Shown here: in pieces, positions 20,065 to 40,024 of the stretch
Layout of the letters: the number at the start of each line of letters is the position of its first letter
Position numbering within the stretch: the stretch's first letter is position 1
NCBI RefSeq assembly: GCF_041886205.1
Contig: NZ_CP169029.1
Source of the DNA: Escherichia coli
GTDB taxonomy: Bacteria > Pseudomonadota > Gammaproteobacteria > Enterobacterales > Enterobacteriaceae
Reading direction: 5' to 3' (one strand)
DNA length: 64,000 bases
Program-made: the position numbers and the translations under genes
Notes under the pieces: model-generated
Told to the model about the DNA's origin: nothing
Database searches by the model: none
The model's input: the letters and a program-made list of their open reading frames with translations, nothing else

Positions 20065-20167
20065 CGGACAAAATCAGAGCCGGAGCCATACCAAACTGCA
20101 GGTAAACCCCGCACGTAAGCAGGCCAAAACCAGCCAGCCCGATAACATCAGCAATTAGTGATTTCAT
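20006..20167 (-). CDS. Small hydrophobic protein (53 aa) overlapping terminase stop and portal start
   Basis: ATGA overlap with terminase stop; [53 protein letters not shown]; below ORF-track length cutoff. Confidence 0.3.
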
Positions 20168-22865: not shown

Positions 22866-22891
22866 AAATATATTCCTGTTCTTTGTCCAGA

Positions 22892-23164
22892 CTATTTGCC
22901 TGCTGCCAGCAAAGCGTTACGGCGCATCTCGATACTTCGAATTCCCGCTTTGTCAATATTGCATTGTCCCAACGCTGACAACAGACTCACATTCAACTCC
23001 AGACTGGCACCATACGTCAGCGGATTGGGTATAAACGGTACAGGAGTATCAGAAGTCAGGCTGGCTGGCAGTGGTGCCACCGGAACGCTCACGTAAACCG
23101 TTCGCGAATTTCCGCAACCGGTCAGCAGCGGCAGCAGGCACAGGACGTGAAGCACAATCATCAT
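22892..23164 (-). CDS. Rz1-like o-spanin lipoprotein (overlapping Rz in another frame)
   Basis: Internal start MMIVLHVLCLLPLLTGC gives lipobox LLTGC; overlaps 3' part of Rz. Confidence 0.55.
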   Translation of the reverse strand: MMIVLHVLCLLPLLTGCGNSRTVYVSVPVAPLPASLTSDTPVPFIPNPLTYGASLELNVSLLSALGQCNIDKAGIRSIEMRRNALLAAGK

Positions 23165-23441
23165 CCGCAACAGCCACTTTGATATCTTCCTGGGTTCTCT
23201 GTGACTCCAGTGCGATCTGCTGTTTTGCATGTTGATTCGCCTCCTGAATGATGTTCGTTATTGCCATAGTACGCAGAACATTCGCGGTGATAGCCTCAGT
23301 AGAATCAGCTCGCTGTTCCGCAGCGTCAGCACGCTTCTGTTCCTTCAGAAACTTTCCGTGGTAGTGATTAGCTGACCAGACAAGACCACCAGCAATACAA
23401 GCAATAAACGTTAAAATGAGCGCCCAATAACTCATCTTCAT
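23049..23441 (-). CDS. Rz-like i-spanin
   Basis: 130 aa; N-terminal TM helix then coiled-coil; follows endolysin. Confidence 0.7.
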   Translation of the reverse strand: MKMSYWALILTFIACIAGGLVWSANHYHGKFLKEQKRADAAEQRADSTEAITANVLRTMAITNIIQEANQHAKQQIALESQRTQEDIKVAVADDDCASRPVPAAAADRLRKFANGLRERSGGTTASQPDF

Positions 23442-24052
23442 ACCAGCAGCGCCGCCCGCGCCTTGTTGTATCGAACCTTACGATCCTCAATACCGTTCAG
23501 ACCGCCGTTAATGATGCGCGTAACACGATTAATATCAGCACCGTAGACCATGCAGCCTTTAGAGGTGTAGAACCATGCAGCTGAGCGCGCGGCCTGTAGC
23601 TCCTGCTCCAGTTGTTCAGGTGAGGTCACCAGATCTAACTTCAGCGCCGCGCCACAGATGCGATAATTATGAAGGCCAGTGATTTGAATTAATCCTCTAC
23701 CACGATATTTCCAGCCATCACCGGGTGCTTTGTTACCCAGTCGGTTGCTATACACCAGATTGGCAATAGCATCCTGACGAGCTGCATGTCCGGATGTTCT
23801 GCCAAGGGCATCAGCCTGCTGCTGTGTGATCCTCTTTCCGAACGTCGCCACCAGCGCAGATGGTGTGTAGTTAAAATTTTCAACTACGGCGCTAAACCCC
23901 ATCGACTCATGGCCTACCTGAGCGATAAACATTGCCTGATCCGCTGGTGCTGTAATGCCGAATTCCTTCATCGCCGCATCAATGTGCGGAAACCAGCGCG
24001 CAGCCAGCCCGGCGCTAATACCAGCCGCCTTTTGAAATAATTGTTGGTTCAT
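23438..24052 (-). CDS. Endolysin, glycoside hydrolase family 19 (chitinase-like)
   Basis: 204 aa; motifs QVGHESMGF and GRGLIQITG. Confidence 0.8.
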   Translation of the reverse strand: MNQQLFQKAAGISAGLAARWFPHIDAAMKEFGITAPADQAMFIAQVGHESMGFSAVVENFNYTPSALVATFGKRITQQQADALGRTSGHAARQDAIANLVYSNRLGNKAPGDGWKYRGRGLIQITGLHNYRICGAALKLDLVTSPEQLEQELQAARSAAWFYTSKGCMVYGADINRVTRIINGGLNGIEDRKVRYNKARAALLV

Positions 24053-24333
24053 TAGTGCCTCAGATGATCAACCAGACGTGCAACGTTGCCTCTGACGGCC
24101 ACCAGCACGGAAAGAAAAATAGTGTTCGCCACGATAATGGGCCATGAGGAATGAGGATAAATCCCACAGAGATAGGCCAACGGAACAGCACTGTATGTAA
24201 CAGTAATCAGCCAGGCTAAACGTGAAACCCAAGGACGATGCCGCGAATCACCACGACGATAAAACATCAGAGTAATAACAACACAAGCACATAACAGCGC
24301 ATTTATAGTTGCTGTCGGGTCATTTAGCTCCAC
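24052..24333 (-). CDS. Holin/antiholin-like membrane protein
   Basis: 93 aa with multiple TM segments immediately upstream of endolysin. Confidence 0.5.
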   Translation of the reverse strand: MELNDPTATINALLCACVVITLMFYRRGDSRHRPWVSRLAWLITVTYSAVPLAYLCGIYPHSSWPIIVANTIFLSVLVAVRGNVARLVDHLRH

Positions 24334-24706
24334 CTGAACCTCCCCGGCGCGTTATGAGCGCCACCAGCGAGCCGATATCCTGATTATTCAGGAACGTCAG
24401 GATCTTAACGGCTAAAGCAGAGACGATTACGGCACCAATAGCATCCAGAGGTTTATCACTGTATCCGGTCAAGTTCGCCAGCTTGGAGCCAACCAACCCA
24501 GAGCAAAGAATCCCGGCAATATATGACACGATAAAATATGCCAGTCGGCGCGATGCACTCAGATCTGCTGCTGTTGCTATGTAGAATACAGCCCCTGCAA
24601 ATGCGCCAAATACAACGCCGTAATCAGTTCCGGTCAGCAGTCCATAAACACTGGCACCCGTCAGGGCACCACCAGCCAGCCCAGTACCGGAAATCGGATC
24701 GGACAT
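24320..24706 (-). CDS. Putative holin
   Basis: 128 aa Gly/Ala-rich TM protein at start of lysis cassette. Confidence 0.5.
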   Translation of the reverse strand: MSDPISGTGLAGGALTGASVYGLLTGTDYGVVFGAFAGAVFYIATAADLSASRRLAYFIVSYIAGILCSGLVGSKLANLTGYSDKPLDAIGAVIVSALAVKILTFLNNQDIGSLVALITRRGGSGGAK

Positions 24707-24785
24707 TTAGCCCCCTCTTAATTGCTGTTGGTCCTCTCAGATATGAGGGGAAGGGATCTTAATGACAGTCTGTTTATTATTTCAG

Positions 24786-25043
24786 TCAAATACTACCCTG
24801 TTGATGATTTCTCAGAAGCGAACTTGACTCCCAGGGGAAACTCAACTTTCCGTTAAAACCACCAGCAGACATTCGTTCAATTTCCACAGAAATATCACTG
24901 AGCCGTTCTTCAAGCTCTGCTTTTTCTTTTACCAGACGGTTATAGCGGCTTAGATGAAGCTTTTGCTGCTCCAGCCAGTCTTCAAGCTGTTCAACAGTCA
25001 TACCAGGGTTAAAAAAATATGGCTGCTGCTTTTCGCCCTGCAT
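24786..25043 (-). CDS. Hypothetical protein (first late gene; start moved to internal Met with GGAGG RBS)
   Basis: ORF-track ORF 24786-25112 overlaps predicted terminator; internal ATG at 25043 has RBS. Confidence 0.35.
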   Translation of the reverse strand: MQGEKQQPYFFNPGMTVEQLEDWLEQQKLHLSRYNRLVKEKAELEERLSDISVEIERMSAGGFNGKLSFPWESSSLLRNHQQGSI

Positions 25044-25062
25044 TATTGACCTCCAGAAAAGC

Positions 25063-25085
25063 AAAAACCCCGCCGAAGCGAGGTT
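25063..25085 (-). terminator. tR'-like intrinsic terminator with UUCG tetraloop downstream of late promoter
   Basis: minus strand cctcgc-ttcg-gcgggg followed by ttttt. Confidence 0.5.
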
Positions 25086-25130
25086 TGTTATGATTTCGTT
25101 AACGGCAGACATACAAAGCCCATCGTTAGG

Positions 25131-25170
25131 AGAATCCTAACCATATTTTTTGAAAAATGCAAGCATCATG
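25131..25170 (-). promoter_or_regulatory. Candidate late promoter (PR'-like) between Q and lysis genes
   Basis: minus strand TTGCAT - 17 nt - TAGGAT; palindrome ttaggagaatcctaa near predicted start. Confidence 0.3.
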
Positions 25171-25193
25171 TCGCCATCTTCGGCGAAAATCAT

Positions 25194-25946
25194 TTATCTT
25201 GTCACTTTTCTCAATTGTGTCTCTGCATATGCTTCTTCCTGCCAGCACTTTGTAACCAGTTTATCAATGACATCTGCATATCCTTTGTACCACTGATAAT
25301 CCGTCAGGTCTGGTACCAGCTTCTGGACATGATGCCGCGCCAGTGTGGTTGGTAAACGGCTAAACCGGTTTCCATTGCAACGCCCACAAATCTTATAAAC
25401 AGGCGTGCCATGAAGCCGGGTCCTTTTTTCATCCAGGACAATACCTTTACCCTTACACCCTCTGCACGCTGTGCTGACTTCTCCCTTACCATGACAATGC
25501 TGACATAGTTCCTTCACCCACTCTTCCTTGATAACAGATTCCCCGCTTCTGGAGTGTTTCACCACTTCGCGCAATACATTATGAAATCCAGTACCAGCAC
25601 AATGCTCACAGCGAGCCTTACTTGCCGCAGACCTGGAATAATCAGCAAAGGCAAAATTCACAAGGTAAGGAATAATCTGTAGCCGGGTTTCTTCACTCAA
25701 TTTATTCAATGTCGGGCTATCCAGTGCCATCGCGTAATTGAGCAGACCTTCAATCGCAAACTGAGGATCCTGAACACCAACTTTTGCCAGGAATAAGGCA
25801 AACCCAAGCGGTGCTTTCGACTGCACCATCCCCTGCGCAGCCATCACATCCGTAATTGTTAAACCACCAGAGCCTGTCGCCGGTGCGTCATCGCTCAATT
25901 TTGGAGATTTTGGGGAGTAATATTTCGGTAAGGCTTCAAGGTTCAT
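25194..25946 (-). CDS. Late antiterminator Q-like protein (multi-CxxC zinc-finger type)
   Basis: 250 aa with four CxxC pairs; located immediately upstream of late promoter/lysis cassette. Confidence 0.6.
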   Translation of the reverse strand: MNLEALPKYYSPKSPKLSDDAPATGSGGLTITDVMAAQGMVQSKAPLGFALFLAKVGVQDPQFAIEGLLNYAMALDSPTLNKLSEETRLQIIPYLVNFAFADYSRSAASKARCEHCAGTGFHNVLREVVKHSRSGESVIKEEWVKELCQHCHGKGEVSTACRGCKGKGIVLDEKRTRLHGTPVYKICGRCNGNRFSRLPTTLARHHVQKLVPDLTDYQWYKGYADVIDKLVTKCWQEEAYAETQLRKVTR

Positions 25947-25959
25947 GCTCGTTCTCCAC

Positions 25960-26955
25960 TTACGCCAGTACGCCTATTGCCAGCGCACGATCGATAAAAC
26001 GAAATATCAGCTCCAGCTGGGAGCCATACTTCTCTTCAAATGCCACGGTATCCGCATGCAGCTCGTCGTGATGCTTTCTGCACAAAGGCAACACAAAGAG
26101 GTCATGCGCTTTTGTTCCCATTCCACCCTGACCGTGACCTATCAGGTGGTGGGGATCATCAGCAGGCTTTCCACAACATGCACACGGCTGTGTCTTAACC
26201 CAGCGCGTGTACTTTTCATTAACCCAGCGGCGACGTTTTGGGCGTAACATAAAAGACTCCGGCGACTCCGGATCCACTTTCAGCGCCAGCACCTTTTTCG
26301 CTTTATCCTGGATAATGCTGGTGGCAGGAACCGAAGGCACAAGGTCACTTTCCCGGGTGACAGACGGCACAACAGGTTTCGGTAATCTCAGTGCCTTACG
26401 GGCTGCGCTTTCAGGTAAGGCATCCGCCAGGTCATTACGAATCAGCCACCAGCACAGTTCCGGCATTGTCACGGCATGGTTATCATCAAAACCGAGATCC
26501 CGACGGACTACAGACAACACCCAACGGGCACAGTTATCCGTTGCCATTGATTCCAGCCGCTCCGTGAACTGATCACGTAACTGATTATCGCAGTGCCAGC
26601 ACAAACGGATTGCTCCCGGCGCGTGACGCATTGTGGTCATGTTCTCGCTGTGCCAGTCGGAATGAGGCCACTGGCAGCCTTTTTCACGAAGTAACCAGCT
26701 TTCAAGACATTCCACGCCACCAGCACGACGGATCACTGCCTCATTGCGGAACACGGCCCGAACGGCAGGATCATCCGCCAGCGGTTGTGATGCCGCCGGA
26801 ACGGCACCACTGGCGAAAGATGAATAACGCTCCGGCTCAGGCTCCAGCAGGACACGCCCCTGCATAAACAGGGGCATCAGCTCTGAACCTGGCCTGAACA
26901 ATACGATCCCCATACGCGGGGCAATTTCAGGGGTCAGTAGTGCTCTCACGGTCAC
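25960..26955 (-). CDS. DUF968-like phage protein
   Basis: 331 aa; C-terminal Cys/His-rich region; sits next to Q as in some E. coli lambdoid prophages (recalled). Confidence 0.45.
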   Translation of the reverse strand: MTVRALLTPEIAPRMGIVLFRPGSELMPLFMQGRVLLEPEPERYSSFASGAVPAASQPLADDPAVRAVFRNEAVIRRAGGVECLESWLLREKGCQWPHSDWHSENMTTMRHAPGAIRLCWHCDNQLRDQFTERLESMATDNCARWVLSVVRRDLGFDDNHAVTMPELCWWLIRNDLADALPESAARKALRLPKPVVPSVTRESDLVPSVPATSIIQDKAKKVLALKVDPESPESFMLRPKRRRWVNEKYTRWVKTQPCACCGKPADDPHHLIGHGQGGMGTKAHDLFVLPLCRKHHDELHADTVAFEEKYGSQLELIFRFIDRALAIGVLA

Positions 26956-26956
26956 C

Positions 26957-27766
26957 TCAATGAACGGTATCGAGCAGCTTTAACAGCTCAGGGAATCGGG
27001 ATTCGAAGAAATGCGGCTGCGTCTCGCGCGGATTTGCGGGACTGGTGATGTTCTTGCCGAACATGCAACCTTTCGCTGTCAGCGACCAGAATTTTTTGAT
27101 GTTGTTAATCGCGGTACGGCTGTATCGTTCGCGCTGCTCGACGATCCCCAGCTTCACCATCTGGTGATATGCCTGATTAGCCGTCAGGCGGATACCATAC
27201 TGTTTCAGCAGTGCACTCAGTGACAGTGTCGGGCGACTTGAGCCATCAGGCGCGTCAGCAGGAGCATCAATGGCATAGCGCGGTGCCAGATTCGGTAAGC
27301 CAACAGCCTCCTGGAGTTTCTGACAGGCCCCAAGCACAGATGAGTTAGACAGGTTTAACTCCCGACGCATAAAGTCCAGCAGAATCACACCAGCCTGCAT
27401 CTTGTCAGCAGCCTGTCCGGATAATTTTTCCGGTGCACTGGTTACCATATCGAAAGTACGGATCACCTTCAGATGGAATGACGGGCTGATCCACATTGCA
27501 TAGGCATACACCAGTTCTTTGCAGACATACGTCCCCTGGTTATTTCCGCCATTAATGACGCTAACTGGTTGATTTTGTTCCAGAGGCGTAATTCCACCCT
27601 CGGTGAAAAGTTGTTCAATCAATTCACAGGTTTGCTTATTGGAGAGCCAGTATTTCGGGCGGTTTTTTTGTTCTCCCCCGGCTGCCCTGTGCAGATCGTT
27701 CAGGCTGTAACGCCCATAAGCATCACGACGAACTTCAATACCATCAATGACCATCAGATTATTCAT
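26957..27766 (-). CDS. KilA-N domain protein (antirepressor-like)
   Basis: N-terminal MNNLMVIDGIEVRRDAYGRYSLNDLHRAAG... typical KilA-N start. Confidence 0.6.
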   Translation of the reverse strand: MNNLMVIDGIEVRRDAYGRYSLNDLHRAAGGEQKNRPKYWLSNKQTCELIEQLFTEGGITPLEQNQPVSVINGGNNQGTYVCKELVYAYAMWISPSFHLKVIRTFDMVTSAPEKLSGQAADKMQAGVILLDFMRRELNLSNSSVLGACQKLQEAVGLPNLAPRYAIDAPADAPDGSSRPTLSLSALLKQYGIRLTANQAYHQMVKLGIVEQRERYSRTAINNIKKFWSLTAKGCMFGKNITSPANPRETQPHFFESRFPELLKLLDTVH

Positions 27767-27785
27767 ACTTCGTTTCTCCTCTTAA

Positions 27786-28175
27786 TCAGGCGGCTGCACC
27801 CGCCGTTTTCTCGTACTTACTGATAGTGATCTCGACCTTCCCTTCCGGGATAACCGGTCCCCACTCCACCAGCATTCTTTTCACCTGGCTGTCGTCTTCC
27901 CACACACCCGCGTGGGTCAGGGCGTCAAACAGCGCCTTGTTATAGTTGTCCAGATCGCGGATCCGGTTATCCGGAGGAAACAACACGATCTCCACTGAAG
28001 CAAGTACCGACGTTGGTTTTGGCAGACGACGTAACTGCTCAACTATTGCTGCGCACGCCGCGCTCTGGAATTTTCGCCCCGCCGCGCTTATCAGGCTCTT
28101 ACCAGCAAACGCCCCTTTGTTGGGGTGTCGCCAGTACGTGTTCACGCTGGGCGGAAAAGGCAGGATCAGCTTCAT
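27786..28175 (-). CDS. rusA: RusA Holliday junction resolvase
   Basis: 129 aa; MKLILPFPPSVNTYWRH N-terminus characteristic of RusA. Confidence 0.8.
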   Translation of the reverse strand: MKLILPFPPSVNTYWRHPNKGAFAGKSLISAAGRKFQSAACAAIVEQLRRLPKPTSVLASVEIVLFPPDNRIRDLDNYNKALFDALTHAGVWEDDSQVKRMLVEWGPVIPEGKVEITISKYEKTAGAAA

Positions 28176-28498
28176 ACTTTCAGGCCCCTCTCATGTAACC
28201 AGTGGGTTGCACGCAGCCTTGCGTTTTCCTCACCGGCAAGCAGTGCGCGGATAATCCCGACCGCCTCGCTGTCGTCGTCCTTCACCGCGGTATGAAGCGT
28301 TATCCCCCGGGCCACGCCACGCTTTATCGTGATGACGCCTTTTTTCTCCAGTGCGCGAAGATGCTCTACCGCTGCATTCACTGAACGGTATCCCAGCATG
28401 GTTGCCACCTCCTGATTGGTTGGCGGAAAGCCACGCTCTTTCTGATAAGAAATCAGCATATCCAGCACCTGCTGCTGGCATTGAGTTAACGTCGTCAT
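28172..28498 (-). CDS. LexA DNA-binding-domain-like protein lacking S24 peptidase domain (start at internal Met MTTLTQ)
   Basis: Aligns by eye to host LexA residues 1-70 (e.g. GFPPTNQEVATMLGYRSVNAAVEHLRALEKKGVI vs [34 protein letters not shown]); ~108 aa total. Confidence 0.6.
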   Translation of the reverse strand: MTTLTQCQQQVLDMLISYQKERGFPPTNQEVATMLGYRSVNAAVEHLRALEKKGVITIKRGVARGITLHTAVKDDDSEAVGIIRALLAGEENARLRATHWLHERGLKV

Positions 28499-28992
28499 TA
28501 CGCCCCCACGTAATTCCCTGACAGATACCACTCATCACTCGATACAGCGCGCTTGCTGCTTTTCCGTAAACACTGCTCACGACGCGCCAGAAAATTGTTT
28601 CGTTCTGGCTGGGAGTGGCTTTCACGGAATGCCGCCATCCACACCGTTGCAGCACGACGGTATAAGCCCCTGGACTCCAGTTCTTCAGCCTGGCGGGTCA
28701 GGCACAAAATCTCCCGCGGGTCGTTAGTGCCGACATAGAAATTGCGCACAGGTCTGGTTTCACGAACTGGTTGCGGTTCTGCCTCCTGCGCTCTCTCAGT
28801 CAGGCGCGGGAAATGTCTGCGTGTATCCCCTTCACAACGGTGAGCCACACGACCACTCTGACGTAACTTGCTTGCTGACTGCAGAACGCGCTGCCGTGAG
28901 TAACCTGCAAAAGCATCCGCAATGTCTCTGGAAGTACACCCCGGATGGGCTTCAATGTATTTCTGAACTTCATTCAAAAGACTCATGATCAC
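28498..28992 (-). CDS. Winged-helix + PerC-like C-terminal domain protein (possible transcription regulator)
   Basis: 164 aa; C-terminal AEELESRGLYRRAATVWMAAF resembles PerC-family motif as recalled. Confidence 0.35.
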   Translation of the reverse strand: MIMSLLNEVQKYIEAHPGCTSRDIADAFAGYSRQRVLQSASKLRQSGRVAHRCEGDTRRHFPRLTERAQEAEPQPVRETRPVRNFYVGTNDPREILCLTRQAEELESRGLYRRAATVWMAAFRESHSQPERNNFLARREQCLRKSSKRAVSSDEWYLSGNYVGA

Positions 28993-29990
28993 CCCCTGAA
29001 TCCTGCTGGGATCTGGCTGTAGTCCACGTTGTCGTAACTGGCTTTGAAGTACGGGTCTTCGCGTTTTTCTGTGTACGTGCTGACGGACGGCGATAAGCGC
29101 AGGGAAAGCTCATCCCATTTTTCCCGCAGCTTCGACGGGCTGAGCACGTTACGGCACCAGAACGGATCGCGGCTGACGCGGCTGTACATCTCGCAGATTT
29201 GTTTGTGAGTACGACCATCCTGCACACACATCAGGCGAATTTCGTTTGCCCAGGCTGTCCAGTTCGGTTCTTTGGGACGAACCACCTCGCCGTCACATTC
29301 GGCAGCCTGCTCGTACAGGGCGATGATTTTTTTCCAGAGCCACTGTGCGCAGGTCAAATCATCCTGCGTCCCCCACTGGCGCTTTTTAGGGCTGAATACA
29401 ACCGCATCAGGATGGCGAGTTAAAAAATCCTGTTCAGCCGTCTGCGTGTCCGGTTGCGAAGAGTCCGGACGAGAAGGTTTTTTATCTGACGGATCATGTT
29501 TTGATTTTACTGACGGATCCCCGCCAGATTCTGACGGGTGAAAACCCGCTTTTTTGCCAGATTTCGACGCATCAAATTTTGACGGGTCAGATTTTGATGC
29601 GTCAGATTTTGACGGGTCAGATTTTGATGCGTCAGATTTTGACGGGTCAGATTTTGATGCGTCAGATTTTGACGGGTCAGAATCTGACAGTTGAGAAAAT
29701 GCCGCTGCCTGAAGCTTCGCAACGTTAAGCTGATAAACATTCGACGCATTGCGGTTACCCTGGCGACGCGCCTTACGCGTTAACCAGCCTTCTGCTTCCA
29801 GCCGTGCGATAGCCGTTCTGACGGTACTCATCCCCGCGCCAATCTGGCGTGCAATGGTTTCAATTGATGGCCAACACACACCTTCGTCATTACTGAAATC
29901 AGCCAGGCGGGCCATAATTGCCACGCTGGATAGCTTCATGCCTGACGCAGCGCAACCATCCCATACATAGCCGGTTAATTTAGTGCTCAT
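28989..29990 (-). CDS. Replication initiator-like protein with internal iterons
   Basis: 333 aa; N-terminal HTH-like segment; central (DASKSDPSKS)n repeat encoded by tandem DNA repeats. Confidence 0.55.
   Translation of the reverse strand: MSTKLTGYVWDGCAASGMKLSSVAIMARLADFSNDEGVCWPSIETIARQIGAGMSTVRTAIARLEAEGWLTRKARRQGNRNASNVYQLNVAKLQAAAFSQLSDSDPSKSDASKSDPSKSDASKSDPSKSDASKSDPSKFDASKSGKKAGFHPSESGGDPSVKSKHDPSDKKPSRPDSSQPDTQTAEQDFLTRHPDAVVFSPKKRQWGTQDDLTCAQWLWKKIIALYEQAAECDGEVVRPKEPNWTAWANEIRLMCVQDGRTHKQICEMYSRVSRDPFWCRNVLSPSKLREKWDELSLRLSPSVSTYTEKREDPYFKASYDNVDYSQIPAGFRG
29521..29690. repeat. Tandem direct repeats (30-bp unit x3 perfect plus degenerate flanking copies): candidate replication origin iterons
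   Basis: gacgggtcagattttgatgcgtcagatttt repeated at 29581-29670, partial copies either side. Confidence 0.65.
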
Positions 29991-29999
29991 GACCGACCT

Positions 30000-30338
30000 C
30001 TATTTCCCTGAATTTACGACGAAACTGTTCGAGCGGGCTGAAGCACTCATGCTCATAGCCTTCGCGGAGGTAGATAACCCGTTGTGTTTCCGGTTCCCAA
30101 CGAATGACTCTGACGGGCACTCCGTAGTGATCTTTGAACCAGCGGTTAACTTGTTGCAAAGGACTGTCTCCTTCTGCCGGTTGAAATCACCCACAGCCCA
30201 CTCTGCAAAGCTGTGGGTTACAATTTCCCTGTCACCTGGTACATTCACTGCATAGCAATACTCCACCTTCGCTTTTCCACCCGGTACAGGAAGCGCAATC
30301 AGTTGCGAGCGACGGTAGTGTGTTGTTAAACTGTTCAT
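30000..30338 (-). CDS. Hypothetical protein
   Basis: 112-aa ORF filling gap between regulatory gene and replication gene with 4-nt overlaps. Confidence 0.35.
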
Positions 30339-30919
30339 GCGTTAGTTTCTCCACAACCAGAAGCAATCGACGCCACGACGCCCGGAGCTGCACACTCGCG
30401 GGCGTTACTCTTTTCCGGCGCACAAAAAACACGAAATAACAGTGTTAAATGCTCCTGCCACTTCGCCATTACTTGGTAGCTGTTCTCTTCGATTTGCTCA
30501 CGCTCAGCCTGGTCAATAACTCCATCAGCAGTTGCCTTGCGTAAGTACTGGGAATGCTTGCCAATCCATTCTATTGACTCCATCAGCCGCTGATTAATGT
30601 CACCATTGTCAATGTCATCAATGACCACCAGCGGCACAAACACCCCATTACTACGACGGGCTATTGCATCTGTTACATGCCTGGTACCACTGGCATCCTG
30701 TAAAACCATGGCCCACTCAAGTGGAAAAATTTGATCCCCACCGCTACGCAGTCTGTTATGCAATTGATCTTTTGCTGGGGTGATATCATCAGATTTATAC
30801 AAACCAAGAATTTCTGCTGCTTCCTCATAGCCATGAGGTAAATCAGCAATCGTTCTTCGTATTGCTGCCACCAGCCATGCTGGTTGTTTATCAACTTTCC
30901 ATTCAGGTTCTTTACCCAC
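30335..30919 (-). CDS. Early regulatory protein in CII position (YdaT-like, uncertain)
   Basis: 194 aa directly downstream of Cro-like gene. Confidence 0.35.
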
Positions 30920-30946
30920 GGTTAATTCCTCATTTCTGTGGTGTTT

Positions 30947-31144
30947 TTATGCCGCAGCACTGTTAGTCTTTTGATATAAAGACACGTCAACTTTCAGTTT
31001 CCCGTTAGTAATTTTTTCTAACTGGTACGCTCGGCCTTCAGGAATAATCTCAGGCCACTCTGAAACAGACGGATGCTTAATACCTAGGGCTTCGGCGGTT
31101 TTACAAACTCCGCCGAAATAATTAATCACGTCGGATTTCCGCAT
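30947..31144 (-). CDS. Cro-like HTH regulator (YdaS-like)
   Basis: 65 aa; divergent from CI-like repressor across operator region. Confidence 0.65.
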   Translation of the reverse strand: MRKSDVINYFGGVCKTAEALGIKHPSVSEWPEIIPEGRAYQLEKITNGKLKVDVSLYQKTNSAAA

Positions 31145-31239
31145 TTCTGTCTCCCGTTAAATTACGTTAAGCAGAAATGTAGGATATCCAACATGCAAAT
31201 GTCAAGAATCCTACATGGGCATGTGGTAGGATTGCCTAC
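31145..31239. promoter_or_regulatory. OR-like region: 18-bp palindromic operator (31177-31194) inside PR (-35 TTGACA at 31200-31205, -10 TACATT at 31176-31181 on minus strand) plus further half-sites
   Basis: atgtaggatatccaacat operator repeated three times around the repressor gene; promoter hexamers 18 nt apart. Confidence 0.6.
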
Positions 31240-31893
31240 ATGATGAACATGAGTGATCGTATTCGCCAAAGGCGAAAAGAACTGAACCTGACACAACAAG
31301 CACTGGCTGATTTGACTGGTGTGAACCGTGTCACGGTTACTGGATGGGAAAAGGACGACTACCAACCAAATGGAGCCAACCTTCAAGCCCTAGCCAACGC
31401 ACTTAAATGCGATCCTCTGTGGCTTGTTAGCGGAAAAGGCTCGCCTGAACCAAAGATAAATCTAAAACCTGAAATATTCGCAGTTAAAAAAGTCCCCCTA
31501 ATCTCGTGGGTTCAGGCGGGTTCATGGACAATGACGGAGCCTGGTGTCAGGAAAGAAGATGCTGAAGAGTGGGTTTATACTACCGCCCTTGTATCAGAAA
31601 TGGCATTTGCACTACGGGTCCGTGGTGATTCAATGACCAATCCCCTCGGCTCACCATCGATACCAGAAGGTTCTATCGTTATCGTAGAGCCAGATATTAT
31701 TGATACAGAGTGTATTAACGGAAAAATCGTTGTTGCCCATATCAATGGTGGGCAAGAAGCGACACTCAAAAAATTTGTTGAGGACTGGCCGAACAGGTAT
31801 CTCGTCCCACTAAATCCTAACTATAAAACTATTGAATGCGGTGAGAACTGCAGAATAGTTGGTCTTGTCAAACAAGTAATAATGGATTTTTGA
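31240..31893 (+). CDS. CI-like repressor (HTH + LexA-like S24 autopeptidase domain)
   Basis: 217 aa; N-terminal HTH (RRKELNLTQQALADLTGVNRVTVTGWE); C-terminal GDSM serine and downstream Lys typical of S24. Confidence 0.85.
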   Translation: MMNMSDRIRQRRKELNLTQQALADLTGVNRVTVTGWEKDDYQPNGANLQALANALKCDPLWLVSGKGSPEPKINLKPEIFAVKKVPLISWVQAGSWTMTEPGVRKEDAEEWVYTTALVSEMAFALRVRGDSMTNPLGSPSIPEGSIVIVEPDIIDTECINGKIVVAHINGGQEATLKKFVEDWPNRYLVPLNPNYKTIECGENCRIVGLVKQVIMDF

Positions 31894-31955
31894 CACATCT
31901 TCCTCACTATCGCAAAACCGGGGTATCCCCGGTTTTTTTATGAGCCTATCTTTTT

Positions 31956-32009
31956 ATGTAGGATAACCAACATAAACTCTTGACACTCACATGTTGGATA
32001 TCCTACATT
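31956..32009 (+). promoter_or_regulatory. OL-like region: two 18-bp operators (31956-31973, 31991-32008) bracketing PL (-35 TTGACA 31980-31985, -10 TACATT 32004-32009)
   Basis: atgtaggataaccaacat and atgttggatatcctacat; same promoter-operator arrangement as OR. Confidence 0.6.
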
Positions 32010-32352
32010 TGTTTTTAGAGTTGTGGTGAATGCGCAGGCTGATGCGCGAAAGACATTGCAGCTATTGCGGAAAAGAGCTGTTCGGCGGGGCAATTAAACG
32101 CCCGTGAGAGTCTGAAATAACCGCAAGCCGGAGATCAGCACCGGTCACCACAACAGCCACTGCTTTGGCGGTACCAGTTTGTACACTTGCTTCCGGCTGG
32201 TACCGCTCTTTTTACAAAACAGAGAAGAGCATCACCGGACGACGGGCTCATAACCCAATCCATCCGGGCGGCTGCCACCGCAGGTGTTCTTCTCTGTTTT
32301 GTGGAGAAACCAACCGACCTTACAGGGTCGATATGATGAGGAGCAGCAAAAT

Positions 32353-32713
32353 GGCTAGCGAACGCAGTACTGATGTGCAGGCATTTATCGGGGAGCTGGA
32401 CGGCGGCGTATTTGAAACCAAAATCGGCGCTGTTCTCAGTGAAGTCGCTTCCGGTGTGATGAACACGAAAACCAAAGGTAAGGTCTCGCTCAACCTGGAA
32501 ATCGAACCGTTTGATGAGAACCGTGTGAAAATCAAACACAAACTCTCATATGTTCGCCCGACTAACCGCGGGAAAATTTCCGAAGAAGACACCACCGAAA
32601 CGCCGATGTATGTCAATCGCGGTGGTCGCCTGACTATTCTGCAGGAAGACCAGGGACAATTACTGACTCTTGCCGGTGAACCTGACGGAAAACTCCGCGC
32701 AGCAGGTCATTAA
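32353..32713 (+). CDS. Hypothetical early protein (YfdP-like size; start uncertain)
   Basis: ORF-track ORF 32165-32713; shortened to internal Met to give ~120 aa. Confidence 0.35.
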
Positions 32714-32778
32714 TATCGTTCTTAATTAACTGATTATTTATCTCATCACTGAATATCTTTATATAGTGAGGACTTATT

Positions 32779-33603
32779 ATGTCTCAGAACTTAGACGCAA
32801 CCGCAATTAATCAAATCCATGCTCTTATTTCTGCTCAGGGTGTTAATGAAATTATCAGTAAGATTGGTGCCGATGCTGTGGCATTGCCTGAGAATTTCCG
32901 CATTCATGATCTGGAAAAATTTAATTTAAATCGCTTCCGTTTCCGTGGCGCGCTTTCCACTGCCAGCATCGATGATTTTACCCGTTATTCTAAAGATCTT
33001 GCAGATGAAGGCACCCGCTGCTTTATCGATGCTGATAATATGCGTGCCGTCAGTGTGCTTAACCTGGGTACTATTGATGAACCAGGTCACGCAGATAACA
33101 CCGCCACTCTCAAACTGAAAAAGACAGCACCGTTCTCTGCTCTGTTGTCTGTTAACGGCGAGCGTAACTCCCAGAAGTCACTGGCAGAATGGATTGAAGA
33201 CTGGGCCGACTACCTTGTAGGCTTTGATGCTAATGGTGACGCTATTCAGGCAACAAAAGCGGCTGCGGCTGTCCGTAAAATCACGATTGAAGCAAACCAG
33301 ACCGCTGATTTTGAAGATAATGACTTCAGCGGCAAACGCTCCCTGATGGAGTCTGTCGAAGCGAAGACCAAAGACATTATGCCAGTGGCATTTGAATTTA
33401 AATGCGTTCCGTTTGAAGGTCTGAAAGAACGTCCGTTTAAATTACGCCTCAGCATTATCACTGGCGATCGTCCTGTACTGGTTCTGCGCATTATTCAGCT
33501 GGAAGCGATGCAGGAAGAAATGGCTAACGAATTTCGTGATCTGCTTGTTGAGAAATTCAAAGACAGCAAAGTAGAAACCTTTATTGGTACTTTCACCGCC
33601 TGA
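32779..33603 (+). CDS. DUF2303-like early protein (YfdQ-like)
   Basis: 274 aa; size and position relative to HD-domain gene match CPS-53 yfdQ-yfdR arrangement as recalled. Confidence 0.45.
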
Positions 33604-33731
33604 TTTCATTACTGCAAATGCCCCTGCGGGGGCATTTATGGAAACGTAATTAACTCAATAATCACCGGATGGTGAGAGCTTCCTTTTAGCAGAATTCAGC
33701 GCGGTGCAGCGCATATAAAGTGGAGAACGAA

Positions 33732-34268
33732 ATGTCATTTATTAAAACTTTTTCCGGGAAGCATTTTTATTATGACAAGATAAATAAAGACGACATCGTG
33801 ATTAACGATATCGCAGTTTCCCTTTCAAATATCTGTCGCTTTGCAGGACATCTTTCACACTTCTACAGCGTCGCCCAGCATGCGGTGCTTTGCAGCCAGC
33901 TGGTACCGCAGGAATTTGCTTTTGAAGCGTTAATGCATGATGCAACAGAAGCATATTGCCAGGACATCCCCGCTCCACTGAAACGCCTTCTTCCTGACTA
34001 TAAACGGATGGAAGAAAAAATAGATGCCGTAATCCGTGAGAAATACGGGTTACCCCAGGTTATGAGCACGCCTGTGAAATATGCCGATCTCATCATGCTG
34101 GCAACCGAACGCCGCGATCTCGGGCTTGATGATGGCTCTTTCTGGCCTGTACTGGAAGGTATCCCGGCAACAGAGATGTTCAACGTGATTCCACTGGCTC
34201 CAGGCCATGCCTACGGGATGTTTATGGAACGCTTTAACGAATTATCGGAGTTACGCAAATGCGCATGA
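33732..34268 (+). CDS. HD-domain 5'-deoxynucleotidase-like protein (YfdR-like)
   Basis: HD motif (H...LMHDATEAY); ~178 aa from MSFIKT. Confidence 0.6.
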   Translation: MSFIKTFSGKHFYYDKINKDDIVINDIAVSLSNICRFAGHLSHFYSVAQHAVLCSQLVPQEFAFEALMHDATEAYCQDIPAPLKRLLPDYKRMEEKIDAVIREKYGLPQVMSTPVKYADLIMLATERRDLGLDDGSFWPVLEGIPATEMFNVIPLAPGHAYGMFMERFNELSELRKCA

Positions 34269-34771
34269 ATGTTTTCGAAATGGAAGGATTTCTTCGCGGG
34301 AAATGTGTACCGCGAGATCTGAAAGTGAATGAAACGGATGCTGAATATCTGGTGCGTAAATTTGCTGAAGCGGAGGCCAAGATTTCGGCTCTGTCCGAAG
34401 ACCAGCAGAGAGCGATTGAGTCAATTAAGCAGGCTGATGCAGCTGTAAAGTTGACACACGAGAAGTTTTCGGCGCTTGCGGCGGAGAATGAGCTGGCTCG
34501 TAAGGCAGTTCAGGCATTCTGCGATGTTGTTGGCGACAACACCGAGGTTATCGCTGAGGTGGTTGGGAGAGATGGCGTTCTGGTTATTTTGGAGGCCATG
34601 AAGGCAACAGGAAATATGCCTGCCACCGATGCTTTCCTGACTGAAGTCCGGGCGCATGGCGTGGAGATGGCTATGGAGCATATGCAGTCGAGCGGTTCGT
34701 TAACATTTGGAGATTGCTACATATCACTTAACGAGTTCGCCGCCCAGCTTCGCAAAGGAGGCGACCAGTGA
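34259..34771 (+). CDS. Hypothetical early protein
   Basis: 170-aa ORF overlapping neighbours by a few nt. Confidence 0.35.
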   Translation: MRMNVFEMEGFLRGKCVPRDLKVNETDAEYLVRKFAEAEAKISALSEDQQRAIESIKQADAAVKLTHEKFSALAAENELARKAVQAFCDVVGDNTEVIAEVVGRDGVLVILEAMKATGNMPATDAFLTEVRAHGVEMAMEHMQSSGSLTFGDCYISLNEFAAQLRKGGDQ

Positions 34772-35175
34772 GCAAGATTGACTATCAGGCACTGCGTGAG
34801 GCGGCAGAGAAAGCCGGTGAAGATAAGTGGCAGGCTAAAAAAATAAATGGTGATTTTTTCGTTATTCGTCACGGTAGTTATACAAGACAGCATGGCTACA
34901 CATCGTATCAACCCATTGCGGAGATTGATTGTAAGCCAGTCCGGGATTTTGTTGCCAAGGCTAATCCGGCTACCGTGCTGGAATTACTGGATGAACTGGA
35001 AGCAGCAAAAAAGCGCATAGCAGAACTGGAGGAGCGGGAAATACTGCTCCCGGAACGTAGCAGCATGCTTCATCGAACAGATTTTCACGATGATTACCAA
35101 ACGGTAATGGCATACAAAGTTTCTGAAGTCATCGATGCAATCCGCGCTACTGGCATTCGCATCAAAGGAGAGTGA
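34768..35175 (+). CDS. Hypothetical early protein
   Basis: 135-aa ORF, overlapping start. Confidence 0.35.
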   Translation: MSKIDYQALREAAEKAGEDKWQAKKINGDFFVIRHGSYTRQHGYTSYQPIAEIDCKPVRDFVAKANPATVLELLDELEAAKKRIAELEEREILLPERSSMLHRTDFHDDYQTVMAYKVSEVIDAIRATGIRIKGE

Positions 35176-35176
35176 T

Positions 35177-35440
35177 ATGGCAACTTTGACAAAAAAGGAA
35201 CAGGCATGGTTGAGCGAATTACAGAACGTTCTTGATCGCTGCCCGTCACCGAAAAAAATTGGTTTTTACACCATTGGCGATAAAAACATTTACCTGTATG
35301 ACCTACGCCGCATGGATGAAATCATGGAGGCTCTTGATAATCGTTCGTCAATGGATTGGTGTGTTGCTGTCCATGATATGAATGCCGGATTTGAAGAAAA
35401 GATTTTGTTCCCCTCGTCAGTTGAAAGCACAGCGGGTTAA
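35177..35440 (+). CDS. Hypothetical early protein (start at MATLTKK with GGAG RBS)
   Basis: ORF-track ORF 35135-35440 trimmed to Met with RBS. Confidence 0.3.
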   Translation: MATLTKKEQAWLSELQNVLDRCPSPKKIGFYTIGDKNIYLYDLRRMDEIMEALDNRSSMDWCVAVHDMNAGFEEKILFPSSVESTAG

Positions 35441-35450
35441 GGACTAACAC

Positions 35451-36467
35451 ATGACAACGTTCACCGACAAAGAACTGATTAAAGAAATCAAAGAGCGCAT
35501 AGGCAGCCTGGACGTTCGAGACAATATTGAGCGCCGGGCTTATGAAATAGCGTTAGCCTCGCTGGAAGCAGAACCGGTGGCCTGGCTGCATTCAGACAAC
35601 GGCTTAGGTATTCCGGCAATAACCCGGAGTAAAAACATTGCTGACAGTTGGTTATCGAATGGCTGGTATGTTCAGCCGCTATATATAGCCCAGCCAGTAC
35701 CGGTAATTCCTGATGAGGTGTTGTCCGCAATCCGGGAGGTTGCCAGGATTCGCGCCGATTTCGATGATTTTGACGGTGACAGGCGAGGTATCGGTGATTG
35801 TCTGGATGAGGCCGAGCAAGAGCTTATCGTTACCATTAACAAATATGCCAGTCAGTTGGCAGTAGAGCCGGTAGTGCCTGCTGTTCTGGAACGTTTGCGA
35901 ACCATTGTAGCGGACCCACGCGCATTACCTCGCAGAAAAGAATGGGTTAGTGGGCAGCAGTACAGTTACGTACTTCTCGAAAACGTAGAAGCTATGGTTG
36001 ATGAAGCCTGCCACGCTGCCATGCTTCAGGGTAGCCAACCTGTAAGCCAAACTTACAACTTGCCAGAATTAATCGAAGGCATGGAAGTTTCCATTGATGT
36101 AAGCACTTGTGATGCTGATTTAGGTAATCGCTATTTCGGCACCGTCACCGAGGCGTTAGAACTTGATACAGCCAAGAATGGTTACATCCTCCTGGTTCAG
36201 GACGCAGAGCCAAACTTCGATGTAAATGGCAACTCTCCGGGAACTCCGGATAGTTGGATAAGCTGTAGTGATCGAATGCCTGAAAAGGGCCAGAACGTGC
36301 TTATTTCGGTGAATTTCGATAGCTCTCTGGTTGAACCGCTAATATGCTCCGCACGCTATACCGGAAGCACCTTTCGGCGCGGAGATGCAACGATTAAGCC
36401 GGGTAATGGTATTGAGCAAGCAACTCACTGGATGCCGCTACCGGAACCGCCGCAGGAGGTGAAGTGA
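35451..36467 (+). CDS. Early protein with C-terminal DUF551-like domain
   Basis: 338 aa; C-terminal ...ATHWMPLPEPP motif. Confidence 0.35.
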   Translation: MTTFTDKELIKEIKERIGSLDVRDNIERRAYEIALASLEAEPVAWLHSDNGLGIPAITRSKNIADSWLSNGWYVQPLYIAQPVPVIPDEVLSAIREVARIRADFDDFDGDRRGIGDCLDEAEQELIVTINKYASQLAVEPVVPAVLERLRTIVADPRALPRRKEWVSGQQYSYVLLENVEAMVDEACHAAMLQGSQPVSQTYNLPELIEGMEVSIDVSTCDADLGNRYFGTVTEALELDTAKNGYILLVQDAEPNFDVNGNSPGTPDSWISCSDRMPEKGQNVLISVNFDSSLVEPLICSARYTGSTFRRGDATIKPGNGIEQATHWMPLPEPPQEVK

Positions 36468-37039
36468 TGAACAACTTAATGATCGACCTTGAGACGATGG
36501 GGAAAAATAAGGATGCACCGATCGTTTCCATTGGCGCGGTGTTCTTCACTCCAGAAACTGGAGACATCGGACAAGAATTCTATACGGTTGTTAGCCTGGA
36601 AAGTGCTATGGGGCAAGGAGCTACACCTGACGGCGATACCATCCTGTGGTGGTTGAAACAAAGCCCTGAAGCACGAGCTGCAATCTGTATTGATGATACT
36701 TTGTCGATCAGCGATGCTCTCTCAGAACTAAATCATTTCATTAACCGGCACGCAGCCAATACGAAATATTTAAAAGTCTGGGGTAACGGGGCCACCTTCG
36801 ACAACGTAATTTTACGTGGAGCTTATGAGCGAGCAGGACAAATCTGCCCGTGGGCATACTGGAATGACCACGATGTACGCACGATCGTTACGCTTGGGCG
36901 TTCCATCGGATTCGACCCCAAAATGGACATGCCTTTCGATGGCGAACGGCACAACGCCCTAGCCGATGCCCGTCATCAGGCAAAATATGTTTCCGCTATC
37001 TGGCAGAAATTAATTCCTGCCACCAGCACAGAATTATGA
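36464..37039 (+). CDS. DEDDh-type 3'-5' exonuclease
   Basis: 191 aa; MIDLETMG (D-x-E), internal acidic motifs and H-x4-D (HNALADARH). Confidence 0.65.
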   Translation: MMNNLMIDLETMGKNKDAPIVSIGAVFFTPETGDIGQEFYTVVSLESAMGQGATPDGDTILWWLKQSPEARAAICIDDTLSISDALSELNHFINRHAANTKYLKVWGNGATFDNVILRGAYERAGQICPWAYWNDHDVRTIVTLGRSIGFDPKMDMPFDGERHNALADARHQAKYVSAIWQKLIPATSTEL

Positions 37040-37075
37040 TTTTCCCGGGTGCAGCCGGTTTTGATGGAGAAAATT

Positions 37076-37348
37076 ATGAATACCTTGTTTTTACTGATGG
37101 CTGAATTCAATACCCCTAACATTGAACTCTCAGCAGTTAGCCAAAAGTACTTTGGCATGAGTCCAGCCACGGCAGAAGCAAAAGCAAACGCTTGTAAGTT
37201 GCCCGTTCCAACATATCGCATCGGCACATCACAAAAAGCAAAACGTTGCATCAATATTCAGGATCTTGCGGAATACATAGACAAAAGGCGAGAAGAAGGG
37301 CGTGCTGAGTGGGAAAGGGTCAGAACCCATAAACAAAGGCTCATTTAA
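37076..37348 (+). CDS. Small DNA-binding protein, excisionase/PrtN-like (uncertain)
   Basis: ~90 aa from MNTLFLL; FGMSPATAEAKANACKLPVPTYRIG resembles PrtN-type HTH as recalled; last gene before element terminus. Confidence 0.35.
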   Translation: MNTLFLLMAEFNTPNIELSAVSQKYFGMSPATAEAKANACKLPVPTYRIGTSQKAKRCINIQDLAEYIDKRREEGRAEWERVRTHKQRLI

Positions 37349-37356
37349 ATAGAATA

Positions 37357-37388
37357 TGAATAAACCCATCCAAAGATGGGTTTATTCA
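37357..37388. terminator. Bidirectional hairpin terminator between convergent genes
   Basis: tgaataaacccatc-caaa-gatgggtttattca, 14-bp perfect stem. Confidence 0.6.
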
Positions 37389-37852
37389 TAATGTTGAAGA
37401 GCAGCGAGTATCAGTTTTTTATGCCGTTTAACCATAGTTTTAGATATCTCAACTGCACATCGAACTTGTCTCATACAATGATCTGTAATGCGACCTTTTA
37501 GCACGTCACCATATTGGATGGCTATTTTCTCTTTAATAATTTCAAGATCGAAAGCAGCATGAGCCTCAATGCAATTAACAAATGAGTCCCATTTAAGAAA
37601 ATCATGGTCCTCTCTATTAATTTCGACCTGACAAGCCATAAGATCATTGTTTCTCTTAATAAATTCATTTATATCTGAATTTATTAGAAGAACTAAAAGA
37701 GGTTCACAGCAAACAACCACCATATATTTTACTTTAGGTGGGGTCGTAAAATCACAATGAAGATACAATACATCACCGGGTGATATACCTCTTTCACGAC
37801 TAAAATTAGCCTTAAAATCAGGAGGGAAACAATCACCCAGCATAAGTATCAA
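37382..37852 (-). CDS. Unknown 156-aa protein, downstream partner of Panacea-domain gene (candidate toxin/effector)
   Basis: 4-nt overlap with upstream gene; no recognisable family by eye; no predicted TM helix. Confidence 0.4.
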   Translation of the reverse strand: MILMLGDCFPPDFKANFSRERGISPGDVLYLHCDFTTPPKVKYMVVVCCEPLLVLLINSDINEFIKRNNDLMACQVEINREDHDFLKWDSFVNCIEAHAAFDLEIIKEKIAIQYGDVLKGRITDHCMRQVRCAVEISKTMVKRHKKLILAALQHYE

Positions 37853-38430
37853 TATCCGTTCTTCAGATAATCCAGTATTAATTTGCTATTTTTTAGCTGT
37901 GCAACTATCGATTCCAAAGACATCTCACCATTGTGATCTGCCTGTTCCCATGCCGCGTCATGGCTCATGGTTCTGATAGCTTCAAAGGACATGTTTCCAA
38001 GCATCGCGATAGACTTATCAATACACTCTAAATCTGAGTCACTAAAAAAGTCTTCATCAGCTTCACGGCTCGGCACAATCGTCATACCTGATACAGAAAA
38101 TGCTTTTCGCACAGAATCGACATCACAACCATTAGGAATGTAACGTCCATCTCCACGAGCAATTTTTATAATATCGTATGTGTTGCTTGCTACAGGCCCA
38201 TCCTTCATAGCGTTATAGTGATCGCCCGTTATGAGGCGTCCAAAACTTTCAAGGTGAAACCTGTCAGCATAATAAAGAATTTTTCCGACATGATAGATAT
38301 CTGGGATCGGTGCTTTAGAGGCGACGTACAGAATGGCCTCTAAAGCCTTTTCTGAATCAAACCTTACATTTAGCATCAATACACCCTTCATCCAAACAAC
38401 ATCGTCAAGCTCTGGCAAATGCAACCGCAT
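37849..38430 (-). CDS. Panacea/DUF4065 (SocA-like antitoxin) domain protein; true start may be internal Met
   Basis: Segment ALEAILYVASK...VGKILYYADRFHLESFGRLITGDHYNAMKDGPVASNTY fits the Panacea signature (LQKLLYYAQ...GPV) as recalled. Confidence 0.55.
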   Translation of the reverse strand: MRLHLPELDDVVWMKGVLMLNVRFDSEKALEAILYVASKAPIPDIYHVGKILYYADRFHLESFGRLITGDHYNAMKDGPVASNTYDIIKIARGDGRYIPNGCDVDSVRKAFSVSGMTIVPSREADEDFFSDSDLECIDKSIAMLGNMSFEAIRTMSHDAAWEQADHNGEMSLESIVAQLKNSKLILDYLKNGY

Positions 38431-38549
38431 CCGCCTTCTACAATCTTAAAGTCTTCACCTACGCTAGGTCAATTGAAGTGATGAGCAAATGATGCTTTCT
38501 AAGAAGAACAGGTTCCCAATAGGCTCCCACAAAGTGTATAACTACTTGT

Positions 38550-38675
38550 TTTTCAAAAACGGTACATCCTATCGAGCATTGGTGCAACGCTAAACCGACC
38601 ACTCCAGTGAACGTCAGTTTTTTCAGGCATTGCGCTGGTTTGGTTGATTTTTTGCATTTCAGAATTACCGTGCAT
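38550..38675 (-). pseudogene. dusA: Displaced 5' end of dusA (first ~35 codons) at the prophage attachment junction
   Basis: Minus-strand translation MHGNSEMQKINQTSAMPEKTDVHWSGRFSVAPMLD matches recalled DusA N-terminus, then diverges (RMYRF-stop). Confidence 0.6.
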
Positions 38676-38969
38676 TTTCAAATGTAGAGATTATTTTATC
38701 GATATATCATGGGGTTATGTTATTCAGCATCACTGTTCAGGAGGCTCAATAGCGGGGTACTATACCATAACAACAGGAAGCGCCTGTCTCATTGCAAAAG
38801 AAAATTGAGATCCTCTCAAGGCATGAAGCTCTCACGAAGTGATGGAAATAATCTTATTAGCCGTTAACTTTGTTAAGGCCAATGATAAACAATCCAGGTT
38901 CGACGATAAATAAAAAATCACACATTAAACTCCGGTGATATCTCCCCCTGCTAATAGCATTGATAGAGA

Positions 38970-39003
38970 AAAAAGAACCCAATAAATATTGGGTCCTTTT
39001 ATA
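38970..39003 (-). terminator. Intrinsic terminator downstream of 39038-40024
   Basis: minus strand ggacccaata-ttt-attgggttc hairpin followed by ttttttctc. Confidence 0.55.
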
Positions 39004-39037: not shown

Positions 39038-40024
39038 TTATTTCTCCGATTTAACCCCGAACAAATCATAAATTAATTTAGAAGTGTCTGTAAGTATTTT
39101 AATCTCTTCCTTTGAGGTTGGGTCAAACGACTTCGCGAAGCTAATTAATTGTGGTGCAGCATCTCGCATTTTGCTTAAAATATCAGGATCGAGCGTTCCT
39201 TCATTCACCAGATGTGACATCTTATCCAGATAGCCATCAAAATTCATTTCTCCCCCATCAGCCAGACGCTTCATCTCTCCCAGGTACTTCTTCATATCAC
39301 GTTGAGATAATTTTTCAAACTGAGCTTTCAGGTAGCTCTCATTATTTTCATTAATATACACTGTTTCTGATAAATCTGCGTAGGCACTAGAATATGAAAG
39401 TGAAATTAACAGCGAAGCAAATAATTTTAAGCTGTTGTCATCATGTTCCTGGCAGGCATTAACAAACGTTAAAAAACCAGAACCTATTGCTTGAAAATGT
39501 ATATTCGCTAAAGGTTCATTATCCTTAGATTCCTCATAAAATAGCTGAACCGTGGAGGGAAGGTCATTCTTAGTTTCTACATCAAAAGTACATTGTTCAA
39601 TGGGCATTGCATCTTTATTATCCCCAAGATTACATATACTATTAATCGCGAAATGAAAAATAGCCCGGTCAACAACTGATGCAATAAAGTCACGATCGTT
39701 TAAATCCTCATCAGTGCAATCGTCAATATACTTATTGACCCACATTTTGAGATCATTTATTTGCTTAAGTAACATCACATTTTTTTTACGTGCATGCCAT
39801 AAATTATGCGTGATTCGTTGAATAAACAAATCTATTTTTGCAATAATTATATCCCGATGACGCAGCGCTGCATAATCAATAGATTTACCATATATATTAT
39901 TTAATTTACCTTTGATTGAACCTCTATTATCTAATTTATCTTTGATTGCATCTTCATTATCGAATTGATTTGAATTGAGTGTTTTATTAAAGTATCTAGT
40001 TGCACCGGGTATTATCTTCAACAT
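39038..40024 (-). CDS. AT-rich hypothetical protein on host side of att junction (occupies yjbL/yjbM position next to zur)
   Basis: 328-aa ORF, Asn/Lys/Asp-rich, low GC. Confidence 0.4.

Follow-up and report, generated by a model that had tools for sequence, protein, structure and literature searches.

The window, a 64,000-nt stretch of Escherichia coli DNA, opens inside an IS903B element and continues through the portion of an SfV-like lambdoid myovirus prophage that it contains into the chromosomal surroundings of dusA (Table 1). The last prophage genes before the chromosome encode a Panacea-domain protein and a 156-aa partner. Beyond them lies a 40-codon minus-strand ORF, which starts with the ATG at 38675..38673, reads MHGNSEMQKINQTSAMPEKTDVHWSGRFSVAPMLD and then RMYRF, and ends with a stop codon at 38555..38553. 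To the right of this fragment lie the DUF2713 gene, zur, yjbJ and dinF, which are the native neighbours of dusA.

Table 1. Features of the prophage, its right attachment site and the adjoining chromosome, in window coordinates.
Feature	Coordinates	Strand	Remarks
IS903B (IS5 family), cut by the window edge	1..788	-	99.6-99.7% to IS903B copies over 1-796/801
Visible part of SfV-like lambdoid myovirus prophage	789..38571	.	tail, head, lysis, Q, replication, cro/cI and early-left genes, plus cargo
SDH-family Clp-fold serine protease, cargo gene	844..1848	+	NCBIfam NF047768, E = 5e-9; 35.9 bits, below the curated cut-off of 250 bits
Pin/Gin-like serine DNA invertase	2281..2844	-	phrog_125, E = 6e-72; adjoins alternative tail-fibre segments
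PrtN-family winged-helix protein	37049..37348	+	PF11112, E = 4.7e-23; last gene of the early-left operon
Terminator-like hairpin closing the Panacea cassette	37355..37390	-	16-bp stem, T-rich tail; from a consensus scan only
156-aa Panacea partner, presumed toxin	37382..37852	-	start overlaps the Panacea stop codon by 4 nt
Panacea (SocA-like) domain protein, putative antitoxin	37849..38430	-	PF13274, E = 9.1e-20; first prophage gene from attR
Conserved phage arm P'	38508..38571	-	ends in tandem 11-mers TGGGAGCCTAT (38529..38519) and TGGGAACCTGT (38518..38508)
Displaced native dusA 5' end	38553..38675	-	35 native codons (38675..38571), 5 phage-encoded codons (RMYRF) and stop
Crossover core ATGCTCGA	38572..38579	-	dusA nt 97-104; identical in attB, attP, attL and attR
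att repeat within dusA, TTTAGCGTTGCACCAATGCTCGA	38572..38594	-	one copy in the window; corresponds to the semiconserved 21-bp repeat of Farrugia et al., 2015 (PMC4482086)
Native dusA upstream (promoter) region	38676..38970	-	kept at attR, now faces prophage cargo; ~99% to unoccupied loci
Host DUF2713 gene (yjbL/yjbM in K-12)	39038..40024	-	first chromosomal gene right of attR

Two features of the chromosomal flank are recorded here in their own right. The DUF2713 gene is intact and encodes 328 aa; in K-12 MG1655 and several other strains it is frameshifted according to the annotation. Farther to the right, malK (52356-53560, minus strand) is split into ORFs of 138 and 263 aa, with the break at about 53145-53153. 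The first ORF ends in ...AGAKKR and a stop, and the second resumes with INQRVNQ..., at a point where we take the MalK sequence to continue as ...AGAKKEVINQ.... Because the break falls in the A-run of gcaaaaaagaggtga, a 1-nt indel is likely, either as a real frameshift or as a homopolymer sequencing error.

The fragment is the native 5' end of dusA

In a tblastn search of the window with K-12 DusA, residues 1-35 match 38675..38571 at 100% identity (E = 2.6e-18), and the rest of the protein has no match in the window. The DNA of the 35-codon fragment is identical to codons 1-35 of K-12 dusA. Immediately upstream (38676-38760) there is one mismatch to K-12 over 85 aligned bases, and the fragment together with its upstream sequence, up to about 39100, matches unoccupied dusA loci of E. 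coli genomes at about 99%. The original prediction, made from the letters of this DNA, had taken the first 35 codons for the DusA N-terminus and gave the translation exactly as we find it; alignment of the fragment with intact dusA bears this out and identifies it as the native, K-12-identical 5' end of the gene. In every lysogen annotation that we inspected, PGAP has marked the corresponding 105 nt as a partial pseudogene for tRNA-dihydrouridine synthase.

The junction is fixed to the base and the crossover lies in an 8-nt core

We compared the junction with 5426 complete E. coli genomes, using an 801-nt query and a 200-nt query centred on the junction, both of which span the fragment. With both queries the match to unoccupied dusA ends at the position of window 38572 in most such genomes, which number in the thousands, and the boundary therefore falls between 38572 and 38571. 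A right prophage boundary had been predicted near 38565. There is indeed a junction there; however, its first phage-specific base is 38571, so the predicted position was 6-7 nt off. When a genome is counted if its match to the 200-nt query passes 38572 and covers at least 80% of the query, the junction is present in 662 of the 5426 genomes (at least 12%, or about one in eight).

An alignment of four att sites, namely attB of K-12, attR of the window, attL of the lysogen PigCaeca_2 and attP of the free phage SKA5, shows the pattern of reciprocal recombinants: attR equals attB to the left of ATGCTCGA and attP to its right, and the reverse holds for attL. We therefore place the crossover within ATGCTCGA. 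The breakpoint is dusA nt 104/105, the core lies inside TTTAGCGTTGCACCAATGCTCGA, and it contains the 7-base core region that has been reported for phage Phi1720a-02. The 23-nt att motif TTTAGCRTTGCWCCWATGCTCGA has a single match in the window, with 0 expected by chance, and a search for a second att copy or attL in the window, with up to three mismatches allowed, found none. Both copies of the att repeat are present in PigCaeca_2 (L004, positions 1553 and 39108); the window has the attR copy only. As a separate observation, two of ten attL sequences (L008 and L010) have the host-type CCA at dusA codon 32, just left of ATGCTCGA, and not the phage-type CCT. Either the attP of those phages differs or the exchange point lay slightly further left.

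A fragment this short (105 nt), with an early stop after it, might also be a partial duplication or a decayed dusA pseudogene that stands among phage genes by coincidence. We regard this as extremely improbable. The fragment stands where dusA itself belongs, preceded by its native upstream sequence and among its native neighbours; its end is, to the base, the crossover core reported for a dusA-integrating phage, and what lies beyond is identical to that phage's attP arm; and the same junction recurs in the 662 genomes. The four-way att alignment refutes such an origin. The fragment is best understood as one half of a phage attachment site.

The phage half of that site is conserved. From 38579 to 38510, that is, over the core and the P' arm, the window is 100% identical to Phi1720a-02; the two diverge beyond 38510, and the shared arm stops right after the second of the tandem 11-mers. 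The arm is conserved in SKA5, Lys8385Vzw and mEp460 as well. Its repeats belong to a motif, GGGA(A/G/T)CC(T/C), that occurs twice in tandem in the window (38529-38510) and three times in the P arm of SKA5 and PigCaeca_2, an 88-nt intergenic region between int and the phage dusA'. Across a 6.2-kb SKA5 locus, all five matches to the motif lie within 170 bp of the attP core, on both sides of it. GGGAACC-type 9-11-mers lie beside the att core at 38508-38529 in the window, at 2897-2933 and 3112-3133 in L005 and at 1689-1725 in L004. Judged by their sequence and placement, the GGGAACC repeats, including TGGGAGCCTATTGGGAACCTGT, are candidate arm-type integrase sites. The three that lie between int and the start of the phage dusA' could allow the integrase to regulate both divergent promoters.

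The prophage is SfV-like

From 4815 to 38571 the window is collinear with the dusA prophage of PigCaeca_2, at 96.5-99% identity. Gene order in the latter is dusA (345 aa), int, DinI, tail, head, lysis, Q, replication, cro/cI, early left, PrtN, hypothetical, Panacea, partial dusA, DUF2713 and zur. Collinearity throughout was considered and rejected: at the left end tail-fibre and cargo genes have been replaced, and the two elements run together only from 4815. Among phages, SKA5 covers 85% of window 4800-29000 at 97.5% and SfV covers 79% at 97.3%. Since these are the closest sequenced phages, we assign the prophage to the SfV-like lambdoid myoviruses, whose morphogenesis and early-gene modules it shares in nucleotide sequence. 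The DinI gene, int and attL of its left end lie outside the window. In the attP layout of SKA5, invertase and DinI genes are followed by int (minus), a 40-codon dusA-like ORF (plus) and cargo. With prophage DNA of this kind to the left of a junction that falls at the reported dusA-phage core, the original reading of a dusA-integrated prophage is upheld.

The only recombinase gene found in the window is that of the Pin-like invertase, homologues of which are annotated as 'recombinase family protein' or 'DNA invertase'. It stands beside oppositely oriented genes for a tail-fibre tip and tail-fibre assembly, and this stretch (2281-4442) is probably an invertible host-range segment; it diverges from PigCaeca_2 and matches L011, an IS-free relative, in part. 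The PrtN-family gene has the same position in five of six annotated lysogens examined, the stretch from the sixth (SEC470) having ended before that position. Its product is a likely candidate for the excisionase (recombination directionality factor).

The left end probably lies behind an IS903B insertion

The IS903B copy sits in the cargo region of the left end of the prophage, with 55 nt between it and the SDH-protease gene downstream. L011, one of the ten protease-encoding contigs described below, aligns with window 789-2931 at 99.86%. Its collinearity starts at 789, in keeping with a simple IS insertion 214 nt to the right of DinI. Searches by tblastn found no integrase, DinI or dusA body in the window beyond DusA residues 1-35, and PHROGs, applied to the unassigned ORFs of the early region, returned the serine DNA invertase only and no integrase. 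The window thus lacks an integrase gene, as had been noted at the outset.

Where the gene should be is indicated by relatives. A protease identical to the 334-aa protein of the window is encoded in many public contigs, and in 10 of the 10 contigs examined its left neighbours are DinI, a 365-aa PF00589 tyrosine integrase and a 345-aa Dus protein, with pspG, qorA and dnaB beyond. The integrase gene is divergent from dusA in these relatives. In all ten contigs, as in PigCaeca_2, dusA starts with the phage-type MHDNHETQ..., fused in frame to the dusA body. Because of this consistent linkage, the integrase is predicted 0.8-1.9 kb to the left of position 1; that it lies to the left of position 1 is strongly supported by the gene order of the relatives. 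The distance, and that of about 2.1 kb for attL, would hold for a simple insertion of a full-length IS903B, which is 1057 bp long, and on the same assumptions the prophage would be about 40.7 kb in length. Such an insertion should have left, to the left of position 1, the remaining ~269 bp of IS903B, a 9-bp target duplication GTGCTTTGG, DinI, int and dusA. The predicted attL of this copy would read ATGCACGATAATCATGAA... fused at ATGCTCGA to the dusA body. Since the left junction is outside the window and IS903B stands at its edge, we infer the int-attL-dusA arrangement of this copy from its relatives.

That edge leaves room for another reading, in which attR is genuine and the left end has been truncated or rearranged through an IS903B-mediated deletion or inversion, with the loss or displacement of int, attL or the dusA body. 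An element of this kind would be locked at its site, and the integrase could not be expected just beyond the window edge. The first bases of the window do belong to an IS903B that disrupts the left cargo region, IS elements may give rise to deletions or inversions, and none of the 5426 complete E. coli genomes covers as much as 80% of window 1-4500. However, the sequence to the right of the IS is seamless with that of the IS-free relative, the break is intergenic, as expected of a simple insertion, and the remaining prophage is collinear with a complete dusA prophage. We therefore consider a rearranged left end quite unlikely, and prefer a simple insertion into an otherwise ordinary left end.

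One relative of the left end lies at another site. In strain 23CRST011 (NZ_AP045770.1 4294957-4312292), the same module of DinI, SDH protease, invertase and tail genes is found beside prfC, with no integrase at that end. Tail and cargo modules thus travel between phages with different integration sites. For this reason we rejected similarity of tail and cargo genes alone as proof of the integration site; our argument uses the linkage in the ten contigs and the sequence of attR.

A variable cargo slot adjoins attR

Both genes of the Panacea pair lie between the PrtN-family gene and attR, and hence inside the element, in accord with the original prediction. The Panacea domain (PF13274 / DUF4065; E = 9e-20) and the overlapping 156-aa ORF would suit a putative toxin-antitoxin pair of the Panacea (PanA / SocA-like) type; the 156-aa protein matches no known toxin family and has no hit in Pfam, NCBIfam or PHROGs. 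The PigCaeca_2 counterpart is likewise annotated as a Panacea domain protein.

The slot that the pair occupies differs between relatives. On the Panacea side of the 801-nt query at most 41 genomes match, compared with the 662 that have the junction. In a comparison of window 37382-38470 with L004, L005 and L016-L020, each lineage examined has a different cassette of two to three genes in this slot, which runs from the PrtN-family gene to attR. The cassettes of the other lysogens and of SKA5 are two further Panacea pairs, a hypothetical gene with a YafO-family toxin, and hypothetical pairs; the att-proximal cassettes often carry toxin-antitoxin genes. All six different cassettes examined are co-oriented with dusA'.

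A consensus scan found no terminator-like site between dusA' and the Panacea gene, and read-through from the native dusA promoter into the cassette is therefore possible. A -35-like TTGACC at 38472-38467 marks an alternative possible promoter for the cassette. Our promoter scans did not find such sites more often than in shuffled sequence, so we rest no promoter claim on them.

Discussion

Our data indicate that 38571-38675 is very probably the attR of a temperate SfV-like phage that has inserted into E. coli dusA at its 5' end, with attL, int and DinI about 0.8-2.1 kb to the left of position 1. The phage attP carries an imperfect copy of the start of dusA, made up of a promoter region and 35 codons reading MHDNHETQKINQTSVMPEKTGVYWNSRFSIAPMLD, with the same residue as the host gene in 26 of the 35 codons. 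A tyrosine integrase would exchange strands within the shared core ATGCTCGA (dusA nt 97-104). Integration joins the dusA body to the phage-supplied 5' end at attL, beside int; at attR it strands the promoter of the host gene with its 35 initial codons, now part of a 40-codon ORF that faces the Panacea pair. Recombination within the 8-nt block of identity keeps dusA in frame at attL.

A comparable economy is seen in e14 and phage 21, which integrate in icd: attP carries a diverged end of the target gene, so that integration preserves the gene and a short piece of its displaced end remains at the other junction. These elements replace the 3' end of their target, whereas the dusA phages replace a 5' end together with its promoter. 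Shigella phage SfV resembles the prophage in its morphogenesis genes and much of its early region; unlike the prophage in dusA, SfV integrates in a tRNA-Thr gene. The free phage SKA5 (OR670062.1) has the same int-attP module, including the 40-codon dusA-like ORF; it differs in its att-proximal cargo genes and is without the SDH protease and IS903B.

Integration of this type was described by Farrugia et al., who defined the dusA-associated tyrosine integrases (DAI family). The prophages and islands that encode them target a semiconserved 21-bp repeat in the 5' end of dusA, and element-borne sequence replaces that end of the gene; excision was shown by PCR, and the elements tested came from Acinetobacter and Pseudomonas (Farrugia et al., 2015; NAR 43:4547, PMC4482086). 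The original prediction had invoked just such integrases, and the paper describes both their target and the replacement 5' end. Like these elements, the prophage in the window is inserted at the att repeat in the 5' end of dusA (nt 104/105), and its relatives have the replacement 5' end, int beside the restored dusA and the native 5' end at the far junction. We see no difference of substance; here the element is an SfV-like phage of E. coli, and the integrase of this copy lies outside the window.

A closer parallel is the Stx phage Phi1720a-02, which inserts some 100 bp inside dusA and restores the gene with a dusA' of its own; its 7-base core lies inside ...TCGAGCAT..., and regenerated attP was seen in sequencing reads (Balasubramanian et al., 2019; PMC6328086). 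Its deposited sequence (Escherichia phage 1720a-02, Phi-stx2dact, KF030445.1) has the same crossover core as the window and a P' arm that is 100% identical over 38579..38510. By this identity the window junction is the same sequence as the published att site. The phages themselves differ, Phi1720a-02 being a 47-kb Stx2-converting lambdoid phage with other cargo beside attR and with divergence beyond 38510.

Junctions of this kind are common and have been described before: the mechanism has been in print since 2015 and the core of a closely related att site since 2019. Our analysis is useful for annotation of the window and adds nothing new to that mechanism. It fixes the right prophage boundary at 38572/38571, explains the lack of an integrase in the window, and puts the Panacea pair in a mobile element as att-proximal cargo. 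The one mildly novel angle is possible read-through, or a promoter swap, into the cargo cassette. In the attP state the dusA-like promoter of the phage and its 40-codon leader ORF would stand upstream of this cassette. On integration the phage promoter would pass to the body of host dusA, and the native dusA promoter, with its stranded leader ORF, would come to drive whichever cassette occupies the variable slot. We put this forward tentatively, as something that may well not hold; if it does, integration would place the variable, often toxin-antitoxin cargo of these phages under the promoter of the host gene.
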